Positions 1,130 to 57,801 of a stretch of 58,483 nucleotides of DNA are shown piece after piece (position 1 is the first letter of the stretch; every line of letters starts with the position of its first letter). A program made the translations under genes and the position numbers. The notes beneath the pieces are model-generated. The model saw only the letters and a list, made by a program, of their open reading frames with translations, made no database searches and was not told where the DNA came from. The DNA comes from Pyrinomonadaceae bacterium (GTDB lineage: Bacteria; Acidobacteriota; Blastocatellia; Pyrinomonadales; Pyrinomonadaceae): NCBI GenBank assembly GCA_036566625.1, contig DATCWB010000576.1, positions 1 to 58,483 on the forward strand, given 5' to 3'.

Positions 1130-2161
1130 CTATGTTCCGGCAGACGCGTTTGTCTCTGCTACTGCCAGATGCAACTGTCTGATCCGTGCAATCACCTCAG
1201 CGATGTGGCTATCATCCGGCTTTTTCGTCCAATGTGAAGATATGTGCGGATCAACGCCGTCCACGGATTCGAAGACCGGCATGAAATGATCGATGATCGA
1301 TTGCGGAAGCTCGCGCATGTGTAGGATCAATAGCCGGATTTCCTTTTTTCCAAACCCCGCCTGTAATGCATGACGCTCGGGCGGGGTCAGGTCTGGATTC
1401 CAAAAGTCGGTAATGAACACAAGCCGGGGCCGGTCGCTGTTGTTAACAGCCTCGTGGTAGAAGGAATCGTCGAACAATAACGCTTTGCCCGCCTGCCATG
1501 TTCGAGATTCCCCTGCGACGCGCAGGAAACAGTCGTCCGGAATATCGAGCGCCAGTTGGCAGCGGACGCGAAAATTATCCGCGCTGTGATGCGCGCGCAC
1601 GATGTATCCGGGGTCGAGCCACGAATAGAAAGCGTCGGCAAAAGGGTAATGACTGAAACCGGCGTAATCATCCACCGGAAGAGTTGACAGCGTGGCGATG
1701 GCTTGTTCGGGAATCGTGCCGGCGGCGTAATAGTCCTGCGGAATCCTGGTTCCAAACGCCGACACGAATCCCTGCCTCCATTTGGATTCCTGAGATTCAT
1801 CGGAACCGGCATAGCTCATGATCATGAACGACGCTCGAAGTTGTATGGCCTCTTCGCGCATACGAGCGTATCCCTGTTCGATCAGCGGAACCCATTCGAA
1901 ATCCGTCGCCTCGGGAAACGGCACGTTGCGAATGCCCGGAAAAAGCGGCAGCACCCAGGGGTCAGGATCGAGGTCGCCGGGCTGATTAACGTCGCGCGAG
2001 TCGGGCTCGTTGCCGCGCAGGATTTCCAGAAAATGTTTGACCCGATCCAACTCCGGCCCGCCGTCAAATATCGACCGCAGGTATCCCCCGGTTTCCATGA
2101 TGCGGGTCATGGCATCCCAAACCATCTTTCGGGAGCGCAGGTCTTCCGAGGTACGCTTCAT
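1130..2161 (-). CDS. aspartyl/asparaginyl beta-hydroxylase (AspH/LpxO, PF05118-like) Fe(II)/2-oxoglutarate oxygenase, 343 aa
   Basis: The C-terminal core YIVRAHHSADNFRVRCQLALDIPDDCFLRVAGESRTWQAGKALLFDDSFYHEAVNNSDRPRLVFITDFWNP matches the family pattern (H..., R.xLxL, W.xGKxLxFDDSxxHEAxN...R..L..D). There is a strong SD (AAGGAG) 6 nt upstream. The gene starts 24 nt downstream of the TE-containing gene on the same strand. Confidence 0.8.
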   Translation of the reverse strand: MKRTSEDLRSRKMVWDAMTRIMETGGYLRSIFDGGPELDRVKHFLEILRGNEPDSRDVNQPGDLDPDPWVLPLFPGIRNVPFPEATDFEWVPLIEQGYARMREEAIQLRASFMIMSYAGSDESQESKWRQGFVSAFGTRIPQDYYAAGTIPEQAIATLSTLPVDDYAGFSHYPFADAFYSWLDPGYIVRAHHSADNFRVRCQLALDIPDDCFLRVAGESRTWQAGKALLFDDSFYHEAVNNSDRPRLVFITDFWNPDLTPPERHALQAGFGKKEIRLLILHMRELPQSIIDHFMPVFESVDGVDPHISSHWTKKPDDSHIAEVIARIRQLHLAVAETNASAGT

Positions 2162-2167
2162 TGGAGG

Positions 2168-2173
2168 CTCCTT
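2168..2173 (-). promoter_or_regulatory. Shine-Dalgarno AAGGAG for the hydroxylase gene
   Basis: Minus-strand AAGGAG (plus-strand ctcctt at 2168-2173), 6 nt before the ATG at 2161. Confidence 0.6.
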
Positions 2174-2185
2174 GGTTTTAAATAG

Positions 2186-5100
2186 CTATTCTGTAGCTTT
2201 CAATTGCTCGGCGAACGTCTGGTTCTCGCGCCTTGCGAGAAGCTTGTTCAGGCCGTCGGCAAGTGCGTTGCAATGGGGTTTGGTCATCATCGTCAAATGG
2301 TCGCCGGGAATGGTTTCGACGTGAACAGCGCCTTGCCCATAGTCGCTCCAACCCCACGTTTCGTCTTTTTTCATTGTCTCAGGGATACCGTCCACGAAGT
2401 CGGCCATCGGTTCCGCCGCACGCAGCAAGACCAGATCGAGAAGCGGATAAGGCGCTTTCGGCCTGTAAAGCATTTGCGCCTGGGTCTTGTAAACGTCCAC
2501 CAGGCCGCGGACTTCGCTTCGGTCTGCATCCGCGGAAATTATCTTTGCGTCAACCAGAGACTGCGCGAACCTTTCGAGCCGGGCAGGCCAGTCAAGACCT
2601 TCCAACGATTCGAGGTTCAGGACAACGGCCTTGCCGAACAAGTGCTGCAGCATATTCGCAACCGCCACAAGCCACTGCATGTCATTTCTCACGGCCAGCG
2701 CGGAGGTGTCTCGCTCTGCGGGCGCGGCGGTATCCAGTATCGCCAACAAAGCGACTTCACGACCCTGCTTCTTCAACTGGTGCGCCATCTCCAACGCCAC
2801 CCAACTGCCGAACGAATGTCCGCCCAGGAAATAAGGCCCCTCTTTCTGCACCTCTAACAGGGCGGTGATGTTCGCGGCGGCCAGTTGCTCAACACTGTCG
2901 AGCGGGCTGGTTCGGCCGTCGAGCCCCGCCGACTGAAAGCCATAAAAGGGGCGGTCATATTTCCCCAATGCCCGCGCCACATCGCGCAAGTAGACCACGC
3001 TGCCACCCGTGCCCGGAACACAGAAAAACGGCCGCTTGCTCCCGTCCGGCTGGATCGGCACCAGCGGCGACCACGCAACGGGCGCAGCATCCTTCCGGTC
3101 GAGCGCGGCGGCGAGCGCACGTATCGTCGGTTCTTTGAGCAAGAGATTGAGAGACGCCCTCTTTCCCAGCGCGTCTTTGATCATCGACATCAAGCGGATG
3201 CCCGTCAGCGAATCACCACCCAGTTCGAAAAAGTCGTCGTCAATACTGATGGACGAAAAGCCGAACAGCTCCTTCCAGAGGTCAACCAGCAAGCGCTCGG
3301 TTGCGCTGCCGGGAACAACAATGCGGCCAGCCCCTTTGGGTCGCGCATGCGAAGTCTTAACGCTCGCCTCACCGGCCGTCCGCCAACCCTGCCGTCGAAC
3401 CCATTGATCATATCGGGAACTCAAATCGCCGGTGGCGATCACAAGTTGACCGGGGGGGGTTCTGGAGAGAACCCTGCGCAGCGCCTCGCGGCTTTCGGCC
3501 GGCGACATCGATAATTCCGTCGCGGAGGTATTATCAAATGACCAGGCGTCCCAGTTAGTCGAACTCCACGGAGCCGCGCCACTTCTGTTTCGCACTGCGG
3601 CAAAGGCGTCCATAAAACGATTGGCCGCACTGTATGCCGTAAAGCCCAGCCCTCCCAACACGGCGGCATTTGAAGAAATCAACAGGCAAAAGTCGAGCGG
3701 CACATCTCGAACAACACGTTCCAGCACACGCAAGCCCTCGACCTTGGGGCGGAACTGCGCCTGCGAAGTCGCTGCGTCTATATCTTCGAGGGCGCAGGTA
3801 AATGACGGATCATCTAATGCGCCCGCCGCGTGTATCACACCGTGCAGGACTCCGAATCGTTGTTGAATCTCAGCCAAAGCAGTACGCATCTCCGCTTCAA
3901 GCGAAACGTCAGCCCGCAATACGAGTATCTCTGCGCCGCGATTTCGTAATGCTATCAGCCGACGAATCTTGACGCTCGTTGCGTCGCTCCCGTCATGCGT
4001 GTCCAGCCACAACTGCCAGTCAGCCGCGTCTGGAAACGACGTGCGACCGAGCAGGCAAAGCCGGGCGCCAACCGTATCAAAAAGCAGTTCGGCGATTTGC
4101 AGTCCTACCCTGCCGAGTCCTCCCGTGATCAGATAAACGCCTCCGTCGCGCAGCTTGCTGTCCGCGTCTTCATCAACCACGAGTTCGACGCGCTCGAAGC
4201 GCGGCACAAAACGGAGTTGCCCGCGATAGGCGACATGCGGGTCGGCCGGGTCGCCTTCGATTTCAGCAAGTAACGCGTCGGCAGAAAACGCCATCACATT
4301 TTCAGTTGACGGCCTCGGAACGTCGATAGTCCTGATTGTCAGGTGCGGGTGCTCCTGTGGAATAACCAGACACGGCCCCAGCAACGTCGCCGTGTCAGGA
4401 CACACATCGCCCTGGCCGAAAACATCGTGCAGCCAGTCGGAGACGACGGCGATTGTGATCGGGTTTTCGAGCGACCGTCTCGTCAGAGCCTGTGCCAGGC
4501 AAACCAGACTTTCGTATCCGCGTCGCCGCGTCTCTTGCGCGTCATCAGTGTCATGGTCGGATCGCAGATTCCAAAGATGCACTATCTTTCTGAAGCCGCT
4601 CGGAGCCGCTTCTGTGATCAGTCGCTCATAATCGCTAACGGCATCCGGCCGCAATGCGAATCGGCGTGCGTCGAAACAAGCGAACTCCGAACTCTCCTCG
4701 ACGCAAACCACACTCTGACCTTCACTATCCAGCCGCTCAATCAAGTCAAGACCCAGTTTGCACCCGTTCGTAAAGATCAACCATGGCGCGCCTGAGCGCT
4801 CGAACCTTCCGGTTGAAATCCGACCGGGCGGCAAGGAAGGACTCCACGTCGGCAGATGGAACCATTGATCCAGAGAAAGCTTTTTCGTCGTGCCGGTCAC
4901 CCGCACAGGAGAATTTTTCAGTGGGTCTACCCAGTGCCGCTGACGCTCGAAGGGGTAGAGCGGCATCGCCACCCGCCGTCGCTGCTGATCGCCGAAATAG
5001 CTGGTCCAGTCAACATCCGCACCCGCGCACCAGAGTTGAGCGAGGGCGTCGGCTATTTGGGTCGCCTCGCTTTGGAGGCCGCTGCTCACCTCTCCACCCG

Positions 5101-8100
5101 GATTGCGTTGTCCGGAAATGGAACTCACTACGACGCGGGACTTGTCGGCAAGCGGTTGCCGCCGGGTGAGCTTCGACAGCGTATCTCCCGGTCCAACCTC
5201 AAGGAACAGTCGATGTGGATCGGAGAGCAACTGACAAATACCGTCGGCGAAGCGAACCGTCTGCCGCAAGTGCTTCACCCAGTAGTCGGGGTCTGTGATG
5301 ACTTCGGATCGAATCCAGGTGCCGCTCACGTTCGAAATAAACGGAATCGCCGGCTGGCCGAACTTAACCTCCCGCAACAACTCGTAAAACCGCGCCGTCA
5401 CGGAATCCATCATCTCCGAATGAAACGCGTGCGAAGTCTTTAGCCGGCGGCAGGCAATGCCGGATTCACCGAGTTGAACTGCATATTCGTCAATGCCTGC
5501 TGGCGACCCTGCAACCACGAATGAATTTGGCGCATTGATCGCGGCGATGGACAAGCCCGTCGGCAGTCGATCCTCAAGTTGCCCTTGCGAGAGAGCGACT
5601 GCCAGCATCGCTCCCTCCGGCTGTTGCCAAATAAGTCTTCCCCGCGCCGCGACCAGCCGCAGCGCAGTAGTTAGATCGAAGACGTTTGCCAGGCAAGCGG
5701 CGACGTACTCCCCGATGCTGTGTCCGATCATCGCACCGGGGCGGATTCCCCAGGACATCCACAGACGGGCGAGCGCATATTCGGTTGCAAATAGCGCCGG
5801 TTGCGTCAGCCACGTCTCGTTCAGGCGTAATGATGCCGTCTCAAAGTCGTTGTTGGCGGGGTAGAGAGCTGCGCGCAAGTCGATACCCAAATCAATCTTA
5901 AGCAAGTCAGCGCAGCGGTCAATCGCCTCTCGATAGACGGGCTCGTCGCGATACAGCTCGCTTCCCATTCCCGCGTACTGTTCACCTTGTCCGGGAAACA
6001 TGAAAACAATGTCGGGCGCGGCCGGCGGAGTCGTTCCCCGACGGAGGCGTTGCGGATGCACCAGCGCGGCGGCAGCATCGGCCGAGTCGCGGCAAACAAA
6101 TGCCGCGCGATGCGGGAGTTGCGCACGGCCTATCGCCTGAGTGTAAGCGGCGTCGGCTATCGAAATATCCTGACCGGCGCGGAAGAACTCAGTCAGGTTT
6201 GAACGTATCTGATCGAGCGCTTCATCCGTGCGGGCGGAAAAGACGATCACTTGAGAGTCACGCGAAGCTGAAGGCGGTTCTTCCACAGGCGACTCTTCGA
6301 CAATCAAATGTGCGTTGGTGCCGCCGAGGCCGAAAGAGCTAACCCCGGCGCGGCGCGGATGCCCGTTGGAGTCCCAGTTGCGCAGACGGTCGTTCACGAA
6401 GAACGGGCTGTTTTGAAAATCGATCTGCGGGTTGGGAGTGTCGAAGTGGATGCTGGGCGGAATCTCACGGTGGCGCAGCGCCAGAATGGTTTTGATGAGG
6501 CCGGTGATACCCGCGGCCGTGTCGAGGTGTCCGATGTTGGACTTCACCGATCCGAGCGCGCAATGTGGCCGGCCGTTTCGGCTCACGCCGAAGGCACGGG
6601 TCAAGGCAGCCACTTCGGCCGGATCGCCCATCGGCGTACCGGTTCCGTGAGCCTCCACGTACGTAATACTCGCGGGATCGATGCCGGCGCACGCCAGCGC
6701 ATCAACGATCACCTGTGATTGACCGTCCACGCCGGGCGCGGTGAAGCCGACCTTCAACGAGCCGTCGTTGTTGATCGCCGAACCTTTGATAACAGCATAG
6801 ACAGTGTCGCCGTCGGCACGCGCCTGTTCGAGCCGCTTCAGGAGCACGACGCCGATCCCGCTGCCCCATGTCGTGCCGTTCGCGCGGGCATCGAATGCAC
6901 GGCAATGGCCGTCGGGCGAAACGATCATGCCTTCGGAATAGAGATATCCCGATTTTTGAGGAACCTTGATCGCCACGCCTCCCGCCATCGCCATATCCGA
7001 TTCACCGGCCAGCAGGCTTTGGCAGGCCATGTGCACCGCCACCAGCGACGATGAGCAGGCGGTTTGGACGTTGACACTGGGGCCTCGCAGATTAAGCAGA
7101 TACGAAGCTCGCGTTGCCAGATAATCACGGTCGTTGCCGAGCAGCACCTGGTAGATGGAATGGGGACTCTGTGCGTAAAGATGGGGCAGTAGATTGAAAA
7201 TCAAGTAGCGAGCGTGACTGCACGCCGCAAAGACGCCGACGGCCTGTTCCCCGACGCCTCCGCCGTATCCTGCATGTTCCAGCACGTGCCATGCGCTTTC
7301 CAGAAAAATCCGGTGCTGTGGATCCATCACCTCCGCTTCGGCAGGGGTAATGCCGAAAAAACCGGCATCAAAGTGTGTGACATCAGAGAGAATTCCATTG
7401 GCGGGAACGTAATTAGGATCGGCGACCAATTCGGGCTCGACACCCGCTTCGATAAGTTCGTCGGTACTGATGAAACTGATGGAATCGCGTCCCTCCCGAA
7501 GGTTTCGCCAGAACGCTCCGAGGTCGTCGGCATCGGGAAATCGCCCGACGACTCCGATCACGGCGATGTCTCTTTGTTGATCGGGCATTGCCGGTCGAGG
7601 ACGACTCTGCGTCACCGTCACCATTTCCCCGGGCGTAATCTTCGCGGCCAGCGCTCGCACAGTCGGGTATTGAAACAACTCGACCAGCGATAAATTCGAC
7701 GCGACAGCGGAGCGCAGCTGCGCGTGCACGCGGGTCATCAACAAGGAGTGCCCGCCGAGGTCAAAAAAGTTGTCGTCGATTCCCACCTGATCGATGTCCA
7801 GGGCTATTTTCCAGATCGCGGCTATTTCCTTCTCGGTCGGGGTGCGAGGCGGCTGATAGACCGCGCGCAGTTCAGGCCGGCTGCGATCCGGGGCGGGCAA
7901 CGCCTTGCGATCCACTTTACCGTTCGGCGTCCGGGGCAACGAATCGAGAAATACGACGGAACTGGGAATCATGAACTCGGGTAGCCTGAGCTTGAGAAAG
8001 GCGCGCAGTTCTTCCGTCGCGGGTGGCGACTTGGTCGTCGGAACTACATAGGCCACCAACTGCTTTTCACGGAGCGCGTCCTCCCGTGCCACGACGACGG

Positions 8101-10969
8101 CTTGACCGATGGCTTCGTGTCGCAACAAGGCCGATTCGATTTCGCCCAGTTCGATGCGAAAGCCTCGGACTTTGACCTGGTTGTCCAGCCGTCCCATGAA
8201 TTCGATCTCGCCGTTCGACAGCCTCCTCACCAAATCGCCGGTTCGATAGAGACGCGCGCCGGGCTGTCCCGAGAACGGATCGGGGCAATAGCGTTCGGCG
8301 GTCATGTCCGGCCGATTCAGATACCCGCGCGCCAATCCTTCGCCGCCGATATATAGCTCGCCGGGAATGCCGACCGGCTGCGGCGAAAAATGAGGATCAA
8401 GCACGTAAAGCTGAGTGTTGTCGATGGGTTTGCCGATGGGAGCGATACCATCTCGCGGTATCTGATCCGCTCCGGGTAAGCAGCGCACCGCCGACCAGAT
8501 GGTAGTTTCGGTTGGTCCATATAAATTCCAGACTTCCAGTCCCAAGTCGCGGAGTCTCCATGCGAGTTCGCCGGGCAGCGCTTCTCCGCCCGAAGCAATA
8601 CGCATTGGTCTGGGCGGTCGCCAGCCTACGTCCAGCAGCATGCGCCAGGTGGCGGGCGTCGCCTGCACGAAGGTCGCGCCCTCACGCTCGATTGCGTTTG
8701 CGATCTTTTGAGGGTCTAAAGCCGTCGCACGATCCGCCACAACAACCCCGCCACCGACGACCAAAGGGAGAAACAATTCGAGCGCCGCGATGTCAAACGA
8801 AATGGTCGTGACCGCAAGCAGTGTATCGTGCTCGTTGAGTCCCGGCTCGCGCCGCATCGAACATAGAAAATTCGCGAGCGAGCGGTGCGAGATTTGGACG
8901 CCTTTCGGCCGTCCCGTTGAACCGGACGTGTAGATTACGTAGGCCAGGTTGTCGGCAGCCGGTCTATCGAGCGGAGATTCCGTGGAGAGCCGATTTAGTT
9001 CACTCTCAACCCGATCCAAATAGACGACATACGCCGGGCTGTCGGGCAAATCCGCCGCCAGGCTTTCCCGCGTGAGGATTACTGCGGGACGGGCATCATC
9101 GAGCATATCGGCGAGCCGGTTTCTGGGATACGAAGGCTCAAGCGGCACGTAAGCGCCCCCTGCTTTCATGATCCCCAGCAGACTAATAATCAGATCGGGC
9201 GACCGTTCGACGAACACCGCCACGAGCGACTCGTGCGAGACGCCCAATCCGCGCAGATACCTTGCCAACCGGTTCGCGCGGCCAAGTAGGTCGGCGTAGC
9301 TCAGACTGTGGCCGTCGGCCTTAATGGCGATCCGCTCGGGCGTATGTTTCGCTTGCTCGTCGAATAACTCGATCAGGGTATGGTCGGCAGGCAAGTGCTG
9401 TTGCGTGTCGTTCCATTGATAGACGACCTGCTCTCGCTCGGCTTCACCCATCATTCGCAGTTGAGACAGCCGCGCGTCCGGCCTGACGGTCAAGTCGCGC
9501 AACAGAACAACAAAATGCGCTGCTAATCGCTCGATGGTTTCTGCGTCGAAGAGATCGGAGTTGTAGCACAGCACCGCCGACAGTCCGCGACGCGATTGTT
9601 CGACTGATAAGCCCAACTCGAATTTAGATGAGACGGCCTCCTGCTGGATGGGCATTAACGCAAACTCGTCCATCCGCACTTCACCCGCCGCGTCATCCTG
9701 CATATCAAATGACACCTGAAATAATGGCGAGTGGCTGAGGTCTCGCGCGGGTTTGAGGGCTTCCACCACCTGCTCGAACGGCACGTCCTGATGTTCGTAC
9801 GCCTTCAGGCACGTTTCACGAACGCGTGCTGCCAATTCGCGCCCCGTCGGGTCTCCGGAAAGATCGATTCGCAGCGCAAGCGTGTTAACGAACAGCCCGA
9901 TCAGCGCTTCCGTCTCCGGGCGCGCACGGTTTGCCACCGCCGTCCCCACGACGACTTCGTTCTGGCCGTTATACCGCGAAAGAACGAGCGCGAATGCCGT
10001 CAGCAACGCCATGAACCGGGTGGTGTCCGTAGCCTGGCAGAATTGCTGTAGACGCCGTGCAAGTTCCGCGTCGAGCGCAAACGAATGGCTGCATCCGCGA
10101 TATGTTTGCACTGCCGGGCGAGGCCGGTCGAGCGGAAGATTTATGAAATCCGGTGCGCCGCGAAGCTCGTTTCGCCAATAGTCGAGTTGTCTCTGTAGCA
10201 GGTCGGCCGACAGACGCCGCCGCTGCCAGTTTGCATAGTCGGTGTATTGAATCGGCAGTTCGACAAGCGTGGGTTCCCTGCCCGCGATAAACGCTTCGTA
10301 CAGTTCCGCAAGCTCGCGTGTGAAGATGCCCAGCGACCAACCATCCGAAACGATGTGATGCATCGTGACAAATAACAGGTGACTCGTTTCGCCGACGCGG
10401 TGCAAAGAGGCTCTGATGAGCACGTCGGTTTCCAGATCAAAGCAGCGTTCCGCTTCCTCCAGCATCAAACGCCGTTCAAGTGTCCGAGGATCGCATTCGC
10501 GGGAATCGGAGGTTGAATCGAAGTAGGCCAACGGACACTCCGCCCGCTCCCGAATGACGACGATTGGCTCGCCGTCACCCTCTGCAAAGTTGCTTCGCAG
10601 CACGCTGTGCCGGCGCATGATCTCGTTCAGTGCGCGCTGGAGGGCTTCCCGGTTCAGAGTGCCTTCCAGGCGCGCGGCCAGCGGCATGTTGTATGCCGGC
10701 GAGCGACCCTCCAACCGGTCGAGAAACCAGAGACGTAATTGCGAAAACGAAGGCCGGAGAGGTTCGCCGGGTGGCACGAGCGTGAGGGGGTCTGCATCCG
10801 CCAACCCCACCGCGCTTTCACCGGCGCGACGCAGATACTCCAGAATGTGCGCCTTTTGCTCTTTGAGTTCGGCCGTCAATTCGGGCGTCAAAATGTCTTT
10901 CGGCGCACGACACCGCAAGTGGTCACCATCCGCCCAGAGCATGATGCCCAGGCCGCGTAAATCCGACAT
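2186..10969 (-). CDS. terminal hybrid NRPS-PKS: docking-C-A-T-KS-AT-KR-T-TE (about 2927 aa)
   Basis: Motifs: MHHIVSDGWS (C), YTSGSTGRPKG/NLYGPTE/NGKVDR (A), FFDLGGHSL (T), QTACSSS/HGTGT/NIGH (KS), GHSIGE/HAFH (AT), TGGLGRVG/LDD/AYSAAN (KR), FFELGGDSL (T), GGHSFGS/LAILD/PGDH (TE). The ORF track starts at a TTG at 11056. I prefer the in-frame ATG at 10969 (MSDLRGL...), which begins a TubC_N-like docking domain and does not overlap the upstream gene. Confidence 0.9.
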   Translation of the reverse strand: MSDLRGLGIMLWADGDHLRCRAPKDILTPELTAELKEQKAHILEYLRRAGESAVGLADADPLTLVPPGEPLRPSFSQLRLWFLDRLEGRSPAYNMPLAARLEGTLNREALQRALNEIMRRHSVLRSNFAEGDGEPIVVIRERAECPLAYFDSTSDSRECDPRTLERRLMLEEAERCFDLETDVLIRASLHRVGETSHLLFVTMHHIVSDGWSLGIFTRELAELYEAFIAGREPTLVELPIQYTDYANWQRRRLSADLLQRQLDYWRNELRGAPDFINLPLDRPRPAVQTYRGCSHSFALDAELARRLQQFCQATDTTRFMALLTAFALVLSRYNGQNEVVVGTAVANRARPETEALIGLFVNTLALRIDLSGDPTGRELAARVRETCLKAYEHQDVPFEQVVEALKPARDLSHSPLFQVSFDMQDDAAGEVRMDEFALMPIQQEAVSSKFELGLSVEQSRRGLSAVLCYNSDLFDAETIERLAAHFVVLLRDLTVRPDARLSQLRMMGEAEREQVVYQWNDTQQHLPADHTLIELFDEQAKHTPERIAIKADGHSLSYADLLGRANRLARYLRGLGVSHESLVAVFVERSPDLIISLLGIMKAGGAYVPLEPSYPRNRLADMLDDARPAVILTRESLAADLPDSPAYVVYLDRVESELNRLSTESPLDRPAADNLAYVIYTSGSTGRPKGVQISHRSLANFLCSMRREPGLNEHDTLLAVTTISFDIAALELFLPLVVGGGVVVADRATALDPQKIANAIEREGATFVQATPATWRMLLDVGWRPPRPMRIASGGEALPGELAWRLRDLGLEVWNLYGPTETTIWSAVRCLPGADQIPRDGIAPIGKPIDNTQLYVLDPHFSPQPVGIPGELYIGGEGLARGYLNRPDMTAERYCPDPFSGQPGARLYRTGDLVRRLSNGEIEFMGRLDNQVKVRGFRIELGEIESALLRHEAIGQAVVVAREDALREKQLVAYVVPTTKSPPATEELRAFLKLRLPEFMIPSSVVFLDSLPRTPNGKVDRKALPAPDRSRPELRAVYQPPRTPTEKEIAAIWKIALDIDQVGIDDNFFDLGGHSLLMTRVHAQLRSAVASNLSLVELFQYPTVRALAAKITPGEMVTVTQSRPRPAMPDQQRDIAVIGVVGRFPDADDLGAFWRNLREGRDSISFISTDELIEAGVEPELVADPNYVPANGILSDVTHFDAGFFGITPAEAEVMDPQHRIFLESAWHVLEHAGYGGGVGEQAVGVFAACSHARYLIFNLLPHLYAQSPHSIYQVLLGNDRDYLATRASYLLNLRGPSVNVQTACSSSLVAVHMACQSLLAGESDMAMAGGVAIKVPQKSGYLYSEGMIVSPDGHCRAFDARANGTTWGSGIGVVLLKRLEQARADGDTVYAVIKGSAINNDGSLKVGFTAPGVDGQSQVIVDALACAGIDPASITYVEAHGTGTPMGDPAEVAALTRAFGVSRNGRPHCALGSVKSNIGHLDTAAGITGLIKTILALRHREIPPSIHFDTPNPQIDFQNSPFFVNDRLRNWDSNGHPRRAGVSSFGLGGTNAHLIVEESPVEEPPSASRDSQVIVFSARTDEALDQIRSNLTEFFRAGQDISIADAAYTQAIGRAQLPHRAAFVCRDSADAAAALVHPQRLRRGTTPPAAPDIVFMFPGQGEQYAGMGSELYRDEPVYREAIDRCADLLKIDLGIDLRAALYPANNDFETASLRLNETWLTQPALFATEYALARLWMSWGIRPGAMIGHSIGEYVAACLANVFDLTTALRLVAARGRLIWQQPEGAMLAVALSQGQLEDRLPTGLSIAAINAPNSFVVAGSPAGIDEYAVQLGESGIACRRLKTSHAFHSEMMDSVTARFYELLREVKFGQPAIPFISNVSGTWIRSEVITDPDYWVKHLRQTVRFADGICQLLSDPHRLFLEVGPGDTLSKLTRRQPLADKSRVVVSSISGQRNPGGEVSSGLQSEATQIADALAQLWCAGADVDWTSYFGDQQRRRVAMPLYPFERQRHWVDPLKNSPVRVTGTTKKLSLDQWFHLPTWSPSLPPGRISTGRFERSGAPWLIFTNGCKLGLDLIERLDSEGQSVVCVEESSEFACFDARRFALRPDAVSDYERLITEAAPSGFRKIVHLWNLRSDHDTDDAQETRRRGYESLVCLAQALTRRSLENPITIAVVSDWLHDVFGQGDVCPDTATLLGPCLVIPQEHPHLTIRTIDVPRPSTENVMAFSADALLAEIEGDPADPHVAYRGQLRFVPRFERVELVVDEDADSKLRDGGVYLITGGLGRVGLQIAELLFDTVGARLCLLGRTSFPDAADWQLWLDTHDGSDATSVKIRRLIALRNRGAEILVLRADVSLEAEMRTALAEIQQRFGVLHGVIHAAGALDDPSFTCALEDIDAATSQAQFRPKVEGLRVLERVVRDVPLDFCLLISSNAAVLGGLGFTAYSAANRFMDAFAAVRNRSGAAPWSSTNWDAWSFDNTSATELSMSPAESREALRRVLSRTPPGQLVIATGDLSSRYDQWVRRQGWRTAGEASVKTSHARPKGAGRIVVPGSATERLLVDLWKELFGFSSISIDDDFFELGGDSLTGIRLMSMIKDALGKRASLNLLLKEPTIRALAAALDRKDAAPVAWSPLVPIQPDGSKRPFFCVPGTGGSVVYLRDVARALGKYDRPFYGFQSAGLDGRTSPLDSVEQLAAANITALLEVQKEGPYFLGGHSFGSWVALEMAHQLKKQGREVALLAILDTAAPAERDTSALAVRNDMQWLVAVANMLQHLFGKAVVLNLESLEGLDWPARLERFAQSLVDAKIISADADRSEVRGLVDVYKTQAQMLYRPKAPYPLLDLVLLRAAEPMADFVDGIPETMKKDETWGWSDYGQGAVHVETIPGDHLTMMTKPHCNALADGLNKLLARRENQTFAEQLKATE
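2222..7573 (-). other. PKS module 11 and release: KS-AT-KR-T-TE
   Basis: KS 6293-7573 (Cys at nt 7055-7057). AT 4997-6010 (Ser at nt 5717-5719; HAFH). KR 3542-4789 (LDD, B-type). Carrier 3092-3313 (FFELGGDSL). TE 2222-3043 (GGHSFGS, Ser at nt 2813-2815; LAILD; PGDH). Confidence 0.85.
7637..10969 (-). other. NRPS module 10: TubC_N-like docking-C-A-T, Gly-like code
   Basis: Docking 10817-10969 (LWADGDHLRCRAPKDILTPELTAELKEQKAHILEYL). C 9437-10759. A 7907-9394, code DILQAGLIWK. T 7637-7849 (FFDLGGHSL). Confidence 0.8.
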
Positions 10970-10986
10970 GAGATTTTCGAGCGATC

Positions 10987-13900
10987 TCACAGAATAACTT
11001 CCTCGGTGTCCGTCTCCATTGCGGAAACTGGGTGATCTCCCTGGCTCGCAGCCCAAAGGTTGTTGTCAATAAACTCCGAAATTCGTCGTATCGTCGGCTG
11101 GCGGAATAACAACGGGATGGGCACGGCCACCTTAAGCGAAGCCCGGATACGGCCGACAACCTTGGCCGCCAGCAGCGAATGGCCGCCCAGATCAAAGAAA
11201 CTGTCGTCGATGCCGATGCACTCAAGTTGAAATGCGTCGGCCCAAATCGCCGCCAATCTTTCTTCCGTCATCGTGCGAGGAGCGATGTATGTCTCGCGTT
11301 TCGCCTGATCCGGAGCGGGCAGCGCGGCGCGATTCACCTTTCCGTTTGGCGTGAGAGGAAAATCGGAGAGGAATACGAAATGCACCGGGATCATATACTG
11401 CGGCAGAGTACGCCCGAGCGACTCGCGCAACGCTTCGAGGTCAATGTCTGCGCCATCGGCCGTGACGAGGTAGGCAATCAAATCGGTCTCACCATGACTG
11501 CCCGGTCGCGCCACGACGACGGATTGCCCGACCTCTGGACGGTCATTGAGCGCGGCTTCGATTTCGCCCAACTCGATACGAAAACCGCGAACTTTCACCT
11601 GTGCATCCAACCGTCCCAGAAAAACGAGACTGCCGTCAGCGCGGTAACGCGCCAGATCGCCAGTCCGATAGAGCCGCGCTCCGGGCGTGACGCCGAACGG
11701 ATCGGGTATGAATTTTTCGGCCGTCAGGTCGCCACGACCCACGTATCCCAGAGCCAGCCCCTCGCCGCCGATGTAGAGTTCGCCGGCCACACCGACGGGC
11801 ACTGGCCGCATTTGCCGGTCAACGACGTATAGTTGCGTGTTGTTGATCGGTCGCCCAATCGGTTCGGTTGCTTCAGTAACGCCGTCGTGCGCGACTTGAT
11901 GAACGGCCGACCAGATGGTCGTTTCCGTCGGCCCGTACATATTCCATAGCTCGACGCCGGTCGCCAGCAGGCGCGCGGCTAATTCGCGCGCTAACGCTTC
12001 GCCACCGCACAGCGCGCGGACTAGCGGCGTCCCGTGCCATTCGGCCTCCAACAGCAGACGCCAGGTGACCGGCGTCGCCTGCATGACGGTCACGCCGCTT
12101 CGCCGTATTTCATTGAGCAGGGCTGCGCCGTCATGCACCGTTTCCCGGTCGGCGATGACGAGTGTTGCGCCCGTTACCAATGGCAGAAACAGCTCTAAGG
12201 CAGCGATGTCGAACGAGATGGTCGTCACTGCCAGCAACACGTCGCGCTCCGCCAGCCCCGGCTTCTCGCGCATCGACAGCAATAGATTTGCGAGTGCAGC
12301 ACCCGAGACCGCGACACCTTTAGGTTTACCCGTCGAACCGGACGTATAGATGATATAAGCAGGGCTTGCGGCACAGGTCGGAACATCAGGATTTAGGTTA
12401 GCGAAAGCGGAGAGACGCCGGCAATCGCCCTCAAGGCAGAGAATCTCGGCCTTCGATTCGGGAACCAACTCAAGGAGATGCGGCTGCGTCAGCACCAGAG
12501 AAACCTGAGCGTCTTCCAGCATGTGACTGAGCCTGTCAACGGGAAATGCCGGGTCCATCGGAACGTAAGCTGCCCCGATTTTGTTGACTGCCAGCAGGCC
12601 AACCAACATCTCAAGCGAGCGTTCCATGAAAATCCCGACCCGGCACTCTAACCCAACACCCAATTCACCTAGCTGTCGTGCCAGTTGATTTGCGCGTTGG
12701 TTCAACTCCTCGTAGGTAAGTTTCCGTTCGCCGAAAACTACGGCGACGTTCGTCGGCGTTCTTTCAACCTGCATTTCGAATAAACTAGCGAGCGACGAGT
12801 CACCGACAGCCGCCGGGCTTCGCGTGTTGTTCCAATCGTTCAGTAACAGTCGCCGCTCCTGCTCCGGCATCATCGGCCAGCTAGCCACAGTCCGCTCCGG
12901 ATCATCAGCCAGACTTGCAAGCAAGTGCGCCAGATGTGCGAGCATGCGGCCGACCGACTCGTGATCGAAACGCTGACTGTCGTACGCGATCTTCAACGGC
13001 AGAGATTCAGCGGGCGCTGTCATTAGCGTAATCGGCAAGTTAGTCTGTTCGAACAATTCGAATTCACGCACCGTGAATGAACCGCCAACCTGCCCGAGCG
13101 ATTCATCCATGGGATAATTTTCAAAGACCACCACGCTTTCAAAGAGCGGGTCGGGCGCTGCCACCTGACTCCAGGTTTGTATCCGCGCCAGTGGGGCATG
13201 GGCGAATGGCTCGCGCGCGATCTGTTCGTTTTGCAGCCGGGTGAGAAATTCTACAACCGGCTCGTCGTCAAAGACCTTCACGCGAACGGGCAGTGTATTG
13301 ATGAACAGACCGATCATCGAATCGACATCGGCGATTTCGGGCGGCCGCCCGGAGACGGTTGCGCCATACACCACGTCGGTTGAATCGGAATACCGGCTAA
13401 GCAACACCGACCACGCGCCCTGAACCAATATGCTTAGCGTCAAACGGCGCGACTGGGCGAGCCGTTGCAACAACCGTGTAGTCTCCGCAGAGAGATTGAG
13501 CGAGCAGGTTGGGAACCGGCGCGCCTGTTCGGGTTCGGCCGAGACACGCTCGATACCGAGGGGCGTCGGGCTGGTAAAGCCTTCCAGATTATCGCGCCAG
13601 AATGAGGCGGCGGCGTCTTCATCCTGCCGTGCCAGCCATTCAATGTAATCACGGAATGGTCGCCGCTTGTCGAGTCGGGTGTGATGTCCGGCCGACAATC
13701 CTTCATAGATGTCCATGGCCTCTTTGAGCAGGATGGGCAGGCACCAGCCATCCGTGAGCAAATGATGATGGCTCCACACGAACTGGTACAGGTTGGCGTC
13801 GAGGCGAATCAGCGCACAGCGCATCAAGGGTGGTTCGTCAATCGTAAATCCACGCAGGCGATCCTCCTGTAGCAGGGTCGTCAGGCGGCGCTCGGCCTGC

Positions 13901-23313: not shown

Positions 23314-23373
23314 GCTCGATGACAGTTCATTCAGAGGGCGATTTCGTTAATCCACTATCGTTGACACGGGGAT

Positions 23374-26508: not shown

Positions 26509-26519
26509 GATGAGTTTTG

Positions 26520-46945: not shown

Positions 46946-46947
46946 TT

Positions 46948-49900
46948 TTAACCGTCATTCGGTCGATCCAAAGTATCTTTCAACGCGGCCATCCGCTCGG
47001 CCAGCAATTGGGTCAGGTCTGAACGCGAGTGGCTCTGTACCGACGGTCGCTCGGGTGCGACTCCGGCCGGTTCATCATTCGTCGCATCGTCATCTTTAAT
47101 CAGTCCCGTTGCCAGGAAATTCACCAACGTTTCCACGTTTGGGTAGTGAAAGGCCAGGGCTGCGGGCAGAGACTCACACAACCCCGCCTGGAGACGATTG
47201 CGAAGCTCCAGCGTGGCGAGCGAGTCCATGCCGAGCGACGAAAATCCGGCGCGCCTGTCAGTTAGTTCACGAGCCTCGACCCCCAGAACGGCGGCGACGT
47301 TTTCCTGCACGAATTTATCTAACAGGGCGCGGCGCCGTCCCGCCGGCGCGGCGTCAAGCCGGTCGCGGAACAATCGGTTTCCCTGTTGTGATTCTGTTTT
47401 CGGCCGGGCGAAAGCGCGTAACAGCGGCAAGCGTTGAAACAGGTCGGGTAGTTTTGAGAATTCGATTGTCGATACGCCCACTTGAACCGCCGTAGAGCGG
47501 ATCAGATCGTTCAGGTGTGACAGCGCCTGTTCGACGCTCAGTTTGCCGAACCCCTCCAACTGCCAGCGGTTCCCGGCATCTCCCCGAGAGGTGAGGCCGA
47601 CGGCGTCCCACTGTCCCCAGTTAATGCTGAGCGCGGGCAAGCCCCGTTGGCGGCGATACCAGGCCAGACCGTCGAGAAACGCGTTGGCCGCAGAATAGTT
47701 GGATTGGCCGGGCGATCCCGTGATTGAGGCCATCGAACTGCAAAGCAGGAAAAAGTCGAGAGCCAGATGTTGCGTCTGAACATGAAGGTTCCATGCGCCG
47801 CTCGTCTTCGGCTGTAGCACGCGAAGGAATTGCTCGGCGCGCTGGCGCATGATGATGGCGTCGTCCAGCAAGCCGGCGGCATGAATCACGCCCCTGAGCG
47901 GTGCGACCTCGGAATTGATGCGGGCGACCAGCGCGGCCACTTGCCCCGCGTCGGTCACGTCGAGTTGTTCAATAATGATCCGCGCGCGGCTTTGTCTCAG
48001 TTTTTGTAATTCCGGCTCTGCCGATTCCCGCACCGGGCGTCGGCCGGCCAGGATGATCGTCCCCGCCCCTTGTTCCGCAAGCCACTGCGCGAGCTTGAGT
48101 CCCACGCCGCCGAGTCCGCCGGTGATCAAATAGCAAGCGTCGCCACGAATCATGAACTGATCGTGACGCGCGGCAAACACACTCGGAAGTAGTCGGGCGA
48201 CGTGTCGGCGGCCGGCGCGATAAGCCACGCGATCCTCGCCTTCATTGGTCGATGCACCCGAGCGGGACAGAACTTCGTCAACCACGAACTTGAGGTCTTG
48301 TTCCGAACTGTCGAGAGCCAAGTCAACGAGTAACGTCCGCCATTCGGAATGCTCCAAAGATATGACGTTCGCCATTCCCCAGAGGGCGGACTTTGCCGGA
48401 TCGACCGGCTCGGTCGGATTACCTACCGGCTGGGCGTCGCGTGTGACCACGCAAAAAGAAGGGCCATTCACGGCTTCCAGTCGCGCGGCAGCCTGGACGA
48501 AGTTCAGCAGTCGGCCGCAATCACGCTCGGTCAATTCCGGCGGCGTGTCTGTTGCCGTGTCTGTGCCGGTCGTGCCTGCGGCGAGAGATAGGAACAGCAC
48601 CGCATCCAGTCGCTCCCCTTTTGTGACGGCGTCCAGCATTTTTCGGATGTCGTCAGGCCGGTCGAGATTCAAATAGAACTCGTCAGCGGCGGGATGTGCG
48701 AAGGATGTCGCTTGCAAACCCACGGTGCAAAACGCACCCGCGTGATGAAATCGTTCGACGACGCTCTCGGCCGACGCTTTGCAATCCGAAATGATGAGAT
48801 AGCGGCGGGCTTTCCCGGTCGAGGCCGTGGCGGGCGGCTTCAAATCTGCGGGTTTCCAGACAACCTGATAACGCTCGACCGCCGTCGGCGGAGCGGCGCC
48901 GATTGCTTCGCGGCTCGCTCGTCTCAACGTCAGTCCAACGATTCGCGCCAGCAACTCGCCCTGTTCGTCAAGCAACTCAACGTCTACTTGCGGGGTCGCC
49001 GAACCTCGTAGCTCGCGCTGTTGCACCTTGCAGAACGCGCGCCGGGTCGGCGTCGAACGGATTTCAAGCCGCTCGAATGAAAGCGGTAAATGCACGCCAC
49101 CCTCCGGCAGCGAGGCAACGGCTGTTTGCAACGCGCCGTCCAGCAAGATCGGATGAAGGCAATACCCGTCGTAGTCCGCCAGATGTTCCGGAACGGAGAT
49201 GGAGGAGTGTGTGGTGTCGTTGCCATGTTGGAACCACTCAATCGAGAAGAAAGCGGCTCCGAAATCCGCGCCCCACTCTCGACACTGCCGGTACCACTGT
49301 TGTCCCGGCACCGCGCCTGATGGTTGGCGCAAGTAATGTCCGTTCTGCGACGGAACGTGCGGCTGCCGGTGGTATGCCGACACGTTGCCGGACATGTGAA
49401 GCTTCCACTCGTCTTCGCCGCTCGATTCGTCAAGCGCGAGTATGCGAAATGCGGCCGTCTCGCCTTCGCCCGGATCGAGAATAAGCTGCACCGTACATCG
49501 CCCTGCCGGGGGCATAATCAATGGCCGGTGAATGGCGGCATCCTCGATCTTGACCGCGCTTGTTTTGAAATGCGCCGTCGCTGCGGCCAAAACCATTTCC
49601 AGCGTGGCCGCGGCGGGCGTGACGACAGCTTCGAAAACGCGATGATCCTTGAGCCACACGGGCGCATCGACACTTAGTTCGGATTCGTAAAGCGTAACCG
49701 CCGAACGAATCCGGCGGCCAAGTAACGGATGGCCGTTCGTCTTCGTCGAACGTAGTAACACGCTTTGCGATGTTGCTTCGGAGCTTGCCTCGCGAGTCGG
49801 CGCTTCCAGCCAGCACTGCCGTCGCTGGAATGCGTAGGTTGGGAGTCGCACCCGCCGCCGCCGGTAATCCCGGTCGAAGCCCTGCCAATCGACCGTGCAA

Positions 49901-52900
49901 CCCAGCAGATGGAGTTCCGAGACGCTTGCCAACAGGGAGTCCCAGTCGGAACGATTACGACGGCAACTGGGAAGCCATTTCGCATCGGGGCCGCTCCAGG
50001 TTTCGCGAGCCACGCTCAGCAAGGCCGGATGCGGGCCGAGTTCGACAAACAACGAATATCCCTGCCGCTCCAGATGCTTGATGCCGTCCATGAACCGGAC
50101 AGGTTCGCGTGCGTGTTCGCGCCAGAAGGCGGGCATCGTGATTTCGTCTCCGGCGGGCATCCCGTCGTGGTTGGAAATAACCGGAATTCTCGCGGGCGAA
50201 AACGAAATGGTCGCCGCCCGCTTTTCGAATTCGTCGAGCATCGGCTCTACGAGTCGTGAGTGGAAGGCGTGAGAGGTTGCCAGCATCTGCCACTTGACCC
50301 CCGCCGCATCCAGCCCCGACAGGACTTGTTCGAGCGCGCCCTGCGATCCGGAAATGACCGTGTTGCTCGGCGAATTGACAGCCGCAACGCTCACCAGCCC
50401 CTGACCACAAGCGAGCAGCGTGGCGATTTCATTTCGGTGCGCGTGAACCATTGCCATCGCGCCGCGCTCGGGCAACTCCTGCATGAGTCGTGCCCGCTCC
50501 GCCACTAGTGTCAGTCCGTCTTCCGCGCTGAAGACGCCCGCCACGCAAGCGGCGACATACTGGCCGACGCTGTGTCCGAGGCAGGCGGCCGGTTCTATCC
50601 CCCACGAACGCCACAGTTCGGCAAGCGCGTACTCGACGGCAAACAGGGCGGGCTGCGTGTAAGCCGTCTGGTTGATCAAGTCACCGCGTCCGTTGGTCGC
50701 CCCGTACCGCTCGGGATAGAGCAAGTGCAGCAACGGCACGTCGAGGATTTTGCTGAGAATCTCCTGGCAGCGTTCGATGGTGCGTCTAAACGTCGGTTGC
50801 GTCTCGAAGAGTTCGCGGCACATGCCCGCGTATTGCGCGCCCTGTCCCGTGAAGAGGAACACGACTCGCGGTTCCGCGCCTGCCACCGGCACGACCGGCG
50901 CACTGCCCTCCTGATGTTGCCGCAGTTTTTCGGCGAGCGCATTGCGCAGATCGGCCGTCGTCCTGCCACTTACCGCGAGCCGATAATCAAAATGATGACG
51001 GCCGGCATTTGCCGTGAAGCACACATCGCCGGCCTCCAACGCAGGATGCCTTCCCAGGTAGTCCACATAGCGCGACGCCTGTTGCCACAACGCCGCCTCG
51101 GTTTTCCCGGACAGCGTCAACAGATGACCCGAGCGTTCGAGTTCGTTCCCGCCGGCAGTTGGCCGTGGCGACTCTTCGAGGATCACATGAGCGTTGGTTC
51201 CGCCAATGCCCAGGGAGTTAACAGCGGCCAACCTTTTGCCGTTCGGAACCTGCCAGTCGATAAGTTCCGTGTTGATATAAAAAGGCGTGCTGTCGAAATC
51301 AATCGCGGGATTAGGCTTTTGGAAATGGAGGGTGGGCGGAATCTGCGCGTGATGCAACGCCAGCGCCGTCTTGATAAACCCTGCGACACCGGAAGCGATT
51401 TGCAGATGACCGACGTTGGTCTTGACCGAGCCGACGACGCAGGTTCCCGGCCGCGGTCGCTCGCCGCGGAATGCCTGATTGAGTCCTGCGATTTCAATCG
51501 GGTCGCCCAATTCCGTGCCCGTTCCGTGTGCTTCGACGTAAGAAATTGATTCGGGCGAGACGTTGCTCACGGCCAGGGCTTCGGCCGCGACCGACGCCTG
51601 GCCATCTCCGCTCGGAGACATGTAGCCGACCTTTGTGCCCCCATCATTGTTAATCGCCGTACCCTTGATGACGGCGTAAATGTGGTCGCCGTCGGCCACT
51701 GCGTCCCGCAGGCGTTTTAAGGCGACGACACCGACGCCGCTGCCAAAGATGGTTCCTTGCGCGCGAGCGTCGAAGGCTCGGCAATGCCCGTCGGGCGAGA
51801 CGATCATGCCGTCCTGAAAGAGGTGGCCTGCCTTTTGCGGAACCTTCACCGATGCACCGCCCGCGAGACAGATGTCGCATTCGCCGTCGAGCAGGCTGCG
51901 GCTGGCGAGATGAATCGTGACCAGGGTCGTCGAACAGGCCGTCTGGACGTTGACGGCCGGGCCCCGCAGGTTCAAACGATACGCGACCTGGGTCGGCAAA
52001 TAATCCTTGTCACTGCCGATCATCAATTGAAACCCGCCCAGCGAATCGAGAGTTGTGACGCCCAGATCGTCTCGCGTGTCGAGCGTGCCGCGATTGGGAT
52101 ACACCTGGTTCAATAAATAGGTGTTCATGCTGGCGCCGGCATAAATCCCGATCAGGCCGGGATAGCGCAAGGGGTCGTAACCGGCATCCTCCAGCACCTC
52201 CCAGGCGCATTCGAGGAACAGGCGCTGTTGCGGGTCCATCAGGACGGCTTCGCGCGTACTGAGACCGAAGAAGTCCGGATCGAAACCCGCGACATCCGCA
52301 AGCACGGAACTGGCTTTGACGTAGTTAGGGTCGCGGGCGGTGCGGGCGTCGATACCTGACCGCACAATCTCCTCATCGCTGAAAAACGTGATCGATTCCA
52401 CGCCGCGAGCTAGGTTGTTCCAGAAAGTTTCCACGTCGTCTGCGCCGGGAAACCGGCAGGACATTCCGATCACGGCGATGTCGGTTTCGTCCTCCGCCGA
52501 CGAACGCCTTGAGCGCCGCCGCTCGGCCTGAACGCGCCCGAGCGTTGCGGCGGTCGCGCACACCTCTTTGCCGCTGTCGAGGAACTGCGCGAGGCTCGAA
52601 ACCGTCGGATACTTAAACAAGTCAACCAGGGTGACGGGGCTGTCAAACTCATCTCTCAGCCTTCCATGCATCTGTACGAGCAGCAGCGAATGTCCGCCAA
52701 GCTCAAAGAAATTCCCATGCAGACTGACCTGGCCGACATCCAGAATCTCCTGCCAGATTCCAGCGATCTTCCGCTCCGTCTCCGTCGCCGGCGCGACGTA
52801 AGCTTCCCTGCCGCCCCCCGCTCTCTCAGCCACGGGCAGCATGTCGCGGTCGATCGCGCCCTCGGCCGTCAGGGGCAGTTCACCCAGATTCCGGTACAAC

Positions 52901-57801: not shown

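Follow-up and report, generated by a model that had tools for sequence, protein, structure and literature searches.

Microsclerodermins are potent antifungal and cytotoxic peptides from sponges and form one compound family with the pedeins of Chondromyces. Their 23-membered ring consists of a Trp derivative, sarcosine (Sar), a pyrrolidinone (Pyrr) with an acid-labile aminal carbon, a polyhydroxylated β-amino acid, 4-amino-3-hydroxybutyrate (GABOB) and Gly; in chemical synthesis, the Pyrr acid was joined to Sar-Trp-Gly and the carboxyl group of GABOB to N3 of the β-amino acid (PMC5132153). A p-methoxyphenyl group is the typical end of the side chain in this family, and the AMMTD unit of microsclerodermin A has a methyl group at position 6. 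The msc gene cluster was described in Sorangium cellulosum So ce38 and Jahnella sp. MSr9139 (Hoffmann et al. 2013, summarised in PMC6163206), and ever since such myxobacterial clusters were found the true sponge producer has been in question. According to this summary, the assembly line starts with an acyl-CoA ligase and polyketide synthase (PKS) modules, carries an aminotransferase (AMT) and a monooxygenase (MOX) on its first nonribosomal peptide synthetase (NRPS) module, which adds Asn, has a PKS gene between NRPS genes as well as N-methyltransferase (NMT, here N-MT) and epimerase (E) domains, and finishes with an NRPS/PKS hybrid ending in a thioesterase (TE); an Fe/2-oxoglutarate (2OG) oxygenase also belongs to the cluster. 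Here, we analysed a stretch of 58,483 nt from a Pyrinomonadaceae bacterium (contig DATCWB010000576.1; the window), in which a hybrid PKS-NRPS assembly line occupies positions 1130-57801. The initial annotation of this DNA had regarded the line as an orphan that maps to no characterised pathway. We find instead that its product string is that of the microsclerodermin macrocycle (PMC5132153) and its domain set that of the msc cluster (PMC6163206), and we consider it highly probable that the locus is a functional, colinear line of the microsclerodermin/pedein type, to which it is matched by architecture and predicted chemistry.

The line is encoded by seven long open reading frames (ORFs), g1 to g7, which are co-directional on the minus strand and all intact over 56.7 kb (Table 1). 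They are separated by 2, -4, 11, 60 and 24 nt, and by 17 nt at the sixth junction with the ATG at 10969 (MSDLRGLG...) as the start of g6, which we prefer over the mechanically called TTG at 11056; the ORF list thus returns exactly the gap figures from which an operon-like arrangement had been proposed. A domain map, compiled from a Pfam scan and self-phmmer mapping of the window proteins, likewise bears out the loading module, the eleven further modules, the single TE and the AspH-type enzyme of the initial annotation, and with domain E-values from 1e-20 to below 1e-200, chance matches are of no concern. The Cys/His/His residues ascribed to every KS are confirmed in the alignment of all six, and the carrier Ser is found in 12 out of 12 carriers.

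From g3 to g6, the domain strings fit the msc description domain for domain (PMC6163206). The AMT and the monooxygenase are attached to the Asn module in g3, a PKS module without KR follows in g4, and the three modules of g5 agree with the Sar, D-Trp and Gly modules of msc in domain order, in both Gly codes, in the N-MT and in the E domain, the code for the D-residue being the one element that is not assignable to Trp. The terminal hybrid, C-A(Gly)-PCP-KS-AT-KR-ACP-TE, is found in g6. At a coarser level, the acyl-ligase loading step, the reducing PKS modules, the stand-alone PKS between NRPS genes, the trimodular NRPS with N-MT and E domains, the KR-ACP-TE end and the Fe(II)/2OG oxygenase are all features which the window shares with msc.

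To read the adenylation (A) domains, Stachelhaus positions were extracted against GrsA, with the control reproducing DAWTIAAICK, and then refined by motif; the substrate assignments follow the canonical codes, which we take to apply here. At the A position of module 5, the canonical Asn code DATKVGEVG is found in two related loci (L084 and L086). Module 7 combines a Gly code with an N-MT embedded in its A domain (19888-20277), and its product is predicted to be sarcosine. The E domain of module 8 has its HHxxxDG, EGHGR and FNYLG motifs, pointing to a D-residue; a literature search for the code of this module, DAAIVGEMW, yielded nothing. In g6, module 10 again has a Gly code (DILQAGLIW) and module 11 a KR with an LDD motif, a combination of Gly, malonate and ketoreduction that would give GABOB, and the TE shows the motif GHSFG. 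As g4 lacks a KR, the Asn-derived ketone should survive and be available for the hemiaminal of a pyrrolidinone. The A codes and the domain map thus reproduce the colinear product string proposed initially, which ran from an enoyl / α-methyl-enoyl / β-hydroxy tail to a terminal 4-amino-3-hydroxybutyrate, and give as units a β-amino-α-hydroxy polyketide acid, Asn-CH2CO, Sar, D-Xaa, Gly and GABOB. The ring atoms of these units (4+5+3+3+3+5) add up to 23, matching the microsclerodermin ring if the chain is cyclised as we suppose, and the module order equals the order in which microsclerodermin was joined synthetically.

These correspondences make it hardly probable that the assembly line is truly orphan, with a product unrelated to any characterised family. 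Protein searches did return no characterised homologue by name, and neither the loading module nor the C-methyltransferase (C-MT) of the window occurs in the published msc domain list. However, microsclerodermin is matched in all six ring units and the order they take, in the lack of a KR in the module after Asn, in the N-MT and E domains, in the closing Gly plus KR and in ring size. Moreover, the searches listed no protein longer than ~1900 residues, and the word-indexed search omitted even g1 and g3 of the window itself, though it listed the 1044-residue g4; as proteins of this size were missed, the absence of Msc names from its results says nothing.

All five working ATs show GHS[VI]G and HAFH, a combination that we take to mark malonyl-type ATs, so that a methyl branch has to come from the C-MT of module 2. 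The sixth AT, in module 4, is a relic, which the initial annotation had missed: it has a ~70-residue internal deletion, its HAFH region is lost, and a dN/dS of 0.27 indicates some constraint. In L084 and L086, which are ~70% identical to the window, this AT is cleanly deleted, leaving KS-linker-ACP. With the AT dead, malonylation of module 4 must come in trans. The same module carries the AMT and a monooxygenase (Ox) that matches TIGR04020 with 494 bits, above the cut-off; in the PuwE and fma/tychonamide pathways, such an AMT-Ox pair has been proposed to make 3-amino-2-hydroxy acyl units. An ER domain is absent from the domain map of the assembly line, and since the saturated C7-C10 segment of AMMTD cannot be made without one, a new congener is the expected product. 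For its side chain, we arrive at 3-amino-10-(p-methoxyphenyl)-6-methyl-2,5-dihydroxy-deca-7,9-dienoic acid, with a 4-hydroxyl in addition if a tailoring enzyme adds one. This structure supposes an arylacetate starter, four extensions and a shift of the double bonds into conjugation, as known structures require. A predicted O-methyltransferase (O-MT) in the loading module, described below, together with the C-MT of module 2 would then install the p-methoxyphenyl and 6-methyl groups, both of which are seen in sponge-derived congeners.

The AMT module also brings lipopeptide synthetases to mind. In PuwE and in the fma/tychonamide system of cyanobacteria, KS-(AT)-ACP-AMT-Ox is fused to C-A-PCP as in g3, the AMT-Ox regions of cyanobacterial loci show 51-58% identity among the matches listed, and fma likewise begins with an A-KR-carrier loading module. 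The mycosubtilin and iturin synthetases MycA and ItuA share the logic of acyl-AMP ligase, KS, aminotransferase and C-A(Asn)-PCP, and their AT-less KS module is malonylated in trans by FenF, reminiscent of module 4. One could thus read the locus as an iturin/puwainaphycin-type synthetase, in which a fatty acid activated by the fatty acyl-AMP ligase (FAAL)-like domain is aminated at a KS-AMT module and built into a cyclic lipopeptide; the JGI name for homologues, 'iturin family lipopeptide synthetase A', would suit this reading, as would the FAAL-like start and the fusion of KS-AMT(-Ox) to an Asn module, for which PuwE is a precedent. We nevertheless judge it very unlikely. Instead of a single KS-AMT followed by uninterrupted NRPS modules, there are four PKS modules ahead of the peptide part, three of them reducing modules that lie before the AMT module and include a C-MT, and two more lie within it. 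The peptide part comprises just five amino acids in the specific pattern Asn/Sar/D-Xaa/Gly/Gly, and the loading module contains a predicted tyrosine-type O-MT rather than being a plain FAAL-ACP. The PuwE and fma/tychonamide pathways, in turn, proceed as pure NRPS lines to lipopeptides, with an active loading KR and without pyrrolidinone or GABOB units, and MycA/ItuA have no reducing PKS modules, Ox domain or intercalated PKS modules.

The acyl-AMP-ligase start initially assigned to the loading module of g1 stands insofar as a FAAL-like domain is present, followed by the reducing modules; its best NCBIfam matches are a long-chain fatty-acid-CoA ligase and a fatty acyl-AMP ligase, all below cut-offs. 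It is no bare acyl-AMP ligase, however, as a pseudo-Asub, a KR, a methyltransferase (MT), an A10-like remnant and a PCP accompany it, and both the inactivation of the KR and the embedded MT had gone unnoticed. In the KR, the catalytic residues are lost (Lys to Asp, Tyr to Ile, Asn to Ala). Every orthologue with the FAAL-KR0-MT-PCP-KS architecture shows identical losses, down to 55-58% identity in the adjoining MT region, which argues that the KR died long ago and that this state is stable; it is probably kept solely as a scaffold. In the cyanobacterial homologues P0139 (Nostoc) and P0125 (Scytonema), which lack the MT, the KR retains Lys and Tyr. An α-keto-acid starter that is reduced and O-methylated, following A-KR-OMT logic, was dropped from consideration, since the KR is without Lys, Tyr and Asn in all orthologues of the same architecture. 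The pseudo-Asub at the N-terminus, with a dN/dS of 0.35 against the relative L090, holds an A10-like '...IPVSALALDDEGYVDSKVL' that is conserved in cyanobacterial A-KR-PCP loading proteins too, and seems, judging from these alignments, to be a fixed element of such loading modules.

No part of g1 is under stronger constraint than the MT, whose dN/dS values against two relatives are 0.04 and 0.07, equal to those of KS1. Its best PDB matches are PRMT6 and CARM1 (E 2e-16), with both double-E loop glutamates aligned. The Rossmann part is matched in PRMT6 and CARM1, PRMT1-type chains align over query residues 27-298, and the post-I acidic residue is kept. Unlike these enzymes, the window MT is embedded in a megasynthase, its THW loop reads YCW, and its likely substrate is a phenol rather than a guanidino group. 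A guanidino starter, suggested by the PRMT fold and the double-E glutamates, was dropped in view of the tyrosine-type codes of the A domains that host its homologues and of the type III motif, both set out below. An exhaustive HMMER search returned 616 representatives at E<1e-30; among the best 150 of these, the usual context is an interrupted A domain, C-A-[MT]-Asub-PCP, sometimes with an N-MT directly after the MT. Thirty of 102 aligned segments of the host A domains read DAST[IV]AAVC, which we take to be the classic tyrosine code, and several more differ from it by one or two positions. This context is that of type III M domains, in whose GxG motif the third Gly is lacking and a conserved Ala comes next (GxGxxA); they include the Tyr O-methyltransferases of ThxA2, DidJ and VatN (PMC8341866). 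The S-adenosylmethionine-binding (SAM) motif of the window MT, VGTGKEA at residue ~1330 of g1, fits this signature, and its homologues at 44-58% identity lie between Acore and Asub, some followed immediately by an N-MT, as is the case for DidJ and VatN; the comparison with ThxA2, DidJ and VatN is one of motif and homologue context rather than of directly aligned sequences. On account of the tyrosine-coded hosts and the GxGxxA motif, we read the MT as a phenol O-MT and predict that it acts on a carrier-bound p-hydroxyphenyl acid. The NRPS-embedded type III Tyr O-MTs appear to have a protein-arginine-methyltransferase fold; a 2020 review listed the type II and type III O-methylating M domains as then having no known structure.

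The same loading module is met in other settings. In P0121, a stand-alone loading-module homologue of 1770 residues from the ENA, a closely similar MT sits before the A domain and the KR keeps Lys and Tyr; given that the MT follows the KR in g1, it looks like a mobile cassette of this loading-module family. P0365, from a 10.5-Mb genome, shares the architecture of g1 in an unrelated NRPS context that is not an msc-like cluster; on the 10.5-Mb contig (L128; ERZ25074506), the g1-like protein (FAAL-MT-PCP-KS-AT-DH-KR-ACP, 3632 residues) ends another NRPS cluster, after a beta-lactamase-family gene, which suggests that the O-MT loading module is reused outside msc-like clusters.

Dead domains, together with the lack of any promoter-like match upstream, could be taken as signs of a decaying or non-expressed relic locus: the module 4 AT is a remnant, the loading KR has no catalytic residues, and the pseudo-Asub is a relic as well. 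We hold this to be exceedingly improbable. All seven ORFs are intact over their whole length, and frames and lengths are kept in orthologues at 85-94% and ~70% identity. The g4 orthologues, about 27 clusters at 68-94%, fall into 12 at 85-94% and 15 at 68-74%; in the upper tier, eleven have the 1044 residues of g4 and two differ (1045 and 1031). In the 94% relative (L087), genes of 3782, 3025, 1044 and 4107 residues face g2 to g5 with 3783, 3025, 1044 and 4108. The dN/dS ratio is 0.18 for g3 overall (against L087), 0.12 for g4 and 0.16 for g1 overall; across the domains tested, the AT relic and the dead KR included, it ranges from 0.04 to 0.27, next to the 0.35 of the pseudo-Asub, with 0.04-0.10 in the catalytic domains and 0.08 for KS4 of g3. 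The KR, being dead in the same way in orthologues at 55-58% identity, represents an old and stable state. The initial view that the system looks functional rather than decayed is thus supported by the matched gene lengths in the 94% relative and by overall dN/dS values of 0.12-0.18.

Relatives also bear on the host. In the ~70% tier, the synteny of g2 to g5 is kept in the NCBI metagenome-assembled genomes (MAGs) GCA_030697165.1 and GCA_964628295.1, and in the latter there is, in addition, an MT-bearing orthologue of g1 whose identity to the MT region of the window is 74%. Among the g4 orthologues at 68-70%, GCA_030697165.1 is labelled Acidobacteriota and a third match Vicinamibacterales. The order AMT-Ox-C-A followed by KS-AT-ACP recurs at 52-62% identity in MAGs labelled Proteobacteria and Alcaligenaceae (one with a Bordetella label). 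In a scan of genome contigs, the matches listed were at most 62% identical, and the labels of the top ones (Methylumidiphilus, Proteobacteria MAGs) should not be taken for the taxon of the host. The exact g7 protein is found in the Logan assemblies of SRR3452787 and SRR3452784. L081 (ENA ERZ25039489 contig_200071, 80 kb) shares the gene order, with 83% identity over the AMT-Ox region, but is split into numerous short ORFs; indels introduced by long-read assembly seem a better explanation for this than decay. The host is probably an uncultured soil or freshwater-type lineage of the Acidobacteriota, as judged from the ~70% relatives, and not a myxobacterium. The Sorangium and Jahnella myxobacteria have a G+C content of ~70%, compared to ~59% throughout the window, whose relatives lie in Acidobacteriota MAGs.

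From the domain content observed, we infer the following course of biosynthesis. The PCP-type carrier would first receive an aryl acid from the FAAL-like domain; a p-hydroxyphenyl acid is the most likely choice, for instance 4-hydroxyphenylacetate. On this carrier, the embedded PRMT-fold MT would O-methylate the phenol, with the dead KR serving merely as a scaffold. Modules 1 to 3 would add three malonates, giving rise to a pair of double bonds, to the C-methyl that becomes the 6-methyl and to a hydroxyl at C5, and module 4, malonylated in trans, would contribute the last C2 unit. There, the aminotransferase would turn the β-keto group into the 3-amino group and the flavin monooxygenase add the 2-hydroxyl. 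After addition of Asn and extension by the KR-less module 6, which would leave a ketone, the side-chain amide of Asn could attack this ketone, which would yield the hemiaminal of the pyrrolidinone. Next would come sarcosine, a D-residue, which is Trp in the family as known, and Gly. Gly, malonate and KR would furnish GABOB, and the TE would finally release the chain as a 23-membered lactam by joining it to the 3-amino group. A further hydroxyl, possibly the C4-OH, may be added by g7. In its alignment to human AspH, both Fe-binding His are kept, and there are weak matches to the acyl-chain hydroxylases OlsC and LpxO; C4 as its target is a guess.

Several points weigh against this assignment. 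The relation to MscA-I is drawn from architecture and predicted chemistry, not from alignment. Of the msc accessory genes, only the Fe/2OG oxygenase is found in the window (g7), which lacks the amidohydrolase MscE, the type II TE, the MFS transporter, the Trp halogenase and the discrete MT, although such genes may lie beyond the window ends; apart from the oxygenase, the accessory genes are also missing from the ~6 kb that lie upstream of g1 in two relatives. Some of them are Jahnella-specific tailoring genes. The window has six megasynthase genes, fused differently, where the msc cluster is described with eight, and it differs by its in-line C-MT, its pseudo-KR/O-MT loading module and its AT-less module 4; the published msc domain legend lists neither a C-MT nor a loading-module MT. 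Without an ER, AMMTD as such is out of reach, and the window has no discrete AT gene that could serve module 4. For module 8, the code gave no assignment to Trp. The sole pointer to an aryl starter is the predicted tyrosine-type O-MT of the loading module, and this MT lies outside any working A domain, between the dead KR and the A10-like remnant instead of between motifs a8 and a9 of a Tyr-activating A domain, the insertion point of type III domains, so that its role on a PCP-bound aryl acid is transferred from the tyrosine enzymes.

At the borders of the locus, the genes upstream of g1 in two relatives (L090 and L091) are non-biosynthetic and differ between the two, on which grounds we place the cluster edge at g1. 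Within the upstream region of the window (57802-58483) there is no sigma-70-like match, and promoter and terminator scans gave results no better than shuffled sequences. Just downstream of g7, a convergent ORF of 251 residues (315-1070, plus strand) has no Pfam or NCBIfam match; its 5' part also adjoins g7 in the Logan contig L083. Two antisense ORFs on the plus strand inside g1/g2 (45923-46951, 342 residues; 50572-51549, 325 residues) are, in our judgement, by-products of high-G+C coding sequence and not genes.

Table 1. Features of the assembly line and its surroundings (positions in the window; AT*, relic; dock, docking domain).
Feature	Position	Strand	Composition or diagnostic detail
g1	46948-57801	minus	3617 residues; loading module and PKS module 1; pseudo-Asub, FAAL-like A, KR, MT, PCP, KS-AT-DH-KR-ACP
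g2	35594-46945	minus	3783 residues; PKS modules 2 and 3; KS-AT-DH-cMT-KR-ACP-KS-AT-KR-ACP
g3	26520-35597	minus	3025 residues; AMT- and Ox-bearing PKS module 4 joined to NRPS module 5 (Asn); KS-AT*-ACP-AMT-Ox-C-A-PCP
g4	23374-26508	minus	1044 residues; module 6; KS-AT-ACP
g5	10987-23313	minus	4108 residues; NRPS modules 7-9; C-A-nMT-PCP-C-A-PCP-E-C-A-PCP
g6	2186-10969 (probable ATG start)	minus	TubC-type docking domain, modules 10-11, TE; dock-C-A-PCP-KS-AT-KR-ACP-TE
g7	1130-2161	minus	343 residues; AspH-family Fe(II)/2-oxoglutarate oxygenase (PF05118)
Pseudo-Asub relic (A-domain C-terminal subdomain), g1 residues 1-150	57352-57801	minus	aligned to N-termini of P0139 and P0125
FAAL/acyl-CoA-ligase-like adenylation domain	55564-57195	minus	Pfam AMP-binding; dN/dS 0.10
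Pseudo-ketoreductase (KR0)	53992-55524	minus	KR and Beta-ketacyl_N matches; dN/dS 0.21-0.26
PRMT-fold methyltransferase, type III M-domain-like, g1 residues 1285-1620	52942-53949	minus	PF05185
A10-like remnant and PCP-type carrier	52579-52884	minus	LPLTAEGAIDR; GGHSL
Module 1, KS-AT-DH-KR-ACP	47116-52479	minus	AT GHSVG/HAFH; KR LDD; DH HxxxExxxxP and DxxxQ
Module 2, KS-AT-DH-cMT-KR-ACP	40418-46846	minus	DH HxxxGxxxxP and DxxxQ; KR FDD
C-MT of module 2	42185-43162	minus	LEVGAGMDG, NILHA
Module 3, KS-AT-KR-ACP	35765-40156	minus	KR without LDD motif
Degenerate AT relic of module 4, g3 residues ~560-860	33018-33920	minus	GRGLG instead of GHSxG
Pyridoxal-phosphate aminotransferase domain, class III	31152-32222	minus	PF00202; dN/dS 0.09
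FMN luciferase-like monooxygenase (Ox), MupA/Atu3671 family	29883-30776	minus	PF00296; dN/dS 0.06
Module 5, C-A(Asn)-PCP	26637-29759	minus	code DATKIGEVG(K)
Module 7, C-A(Gly)-nMT-PCP	18817-23184	minus	code DILQFGLIW
Module 8, C-A(Xaa)-PCP-E	14164-18744	minus	code DAAIVGEMW; A domain at 15910-17352
Module 9, C-A(Gly)-PCP	11074-14085	minus	code DILQLGMIW
Upstream non-coding, presumed promoter region	57802-58483		no convincing ORF

The locus is a new member of a known family and not a new kind of system; it comes from a probably non-myxobacterial lineage and has a variant starter module and side-chain programming unlike that of the published myxobacterial clusters. The same assembly logic persists, intact and under purifying selection, in a group of uncultured bacteria (about 27 orthologue clusters, some in Acidobacteriota MAGs). 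It offers an example of frozen domain decay, with an AT relic here that is deleted in its cousins and a dead KR kept as a scaffold, and a PRMT-like active site performing phenol O-methylation would be worth structural study. As a genome-mining lead, the locus is a good one: it provides a route to new congeners, and sponge metagenomes could be searched with probe sequences taken from its loading O-MT and from the AMT module that lacks a working AT. In the published domain list, the myxobacterial clusters have an in-line domain for neither the p-methoxyphenyl nor the 6-methyl group. It is a tentative and on balance rather unlikely thought that an Acidobacteriota-type lineage hard-wires both groups, employs a new loading-module design and makes sponge-associated Acidobacteria candidates for the true producers. 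If it were true, the loading design would be one in which a PRMT-fold, tyrosine-type O-MT on a dead-KR scaffold methylates an aryl starter on its carrier before extension, and sponge-associated Acidobacteria, rather than myxobacteria, would become the candidate producers of the sponge compounds.

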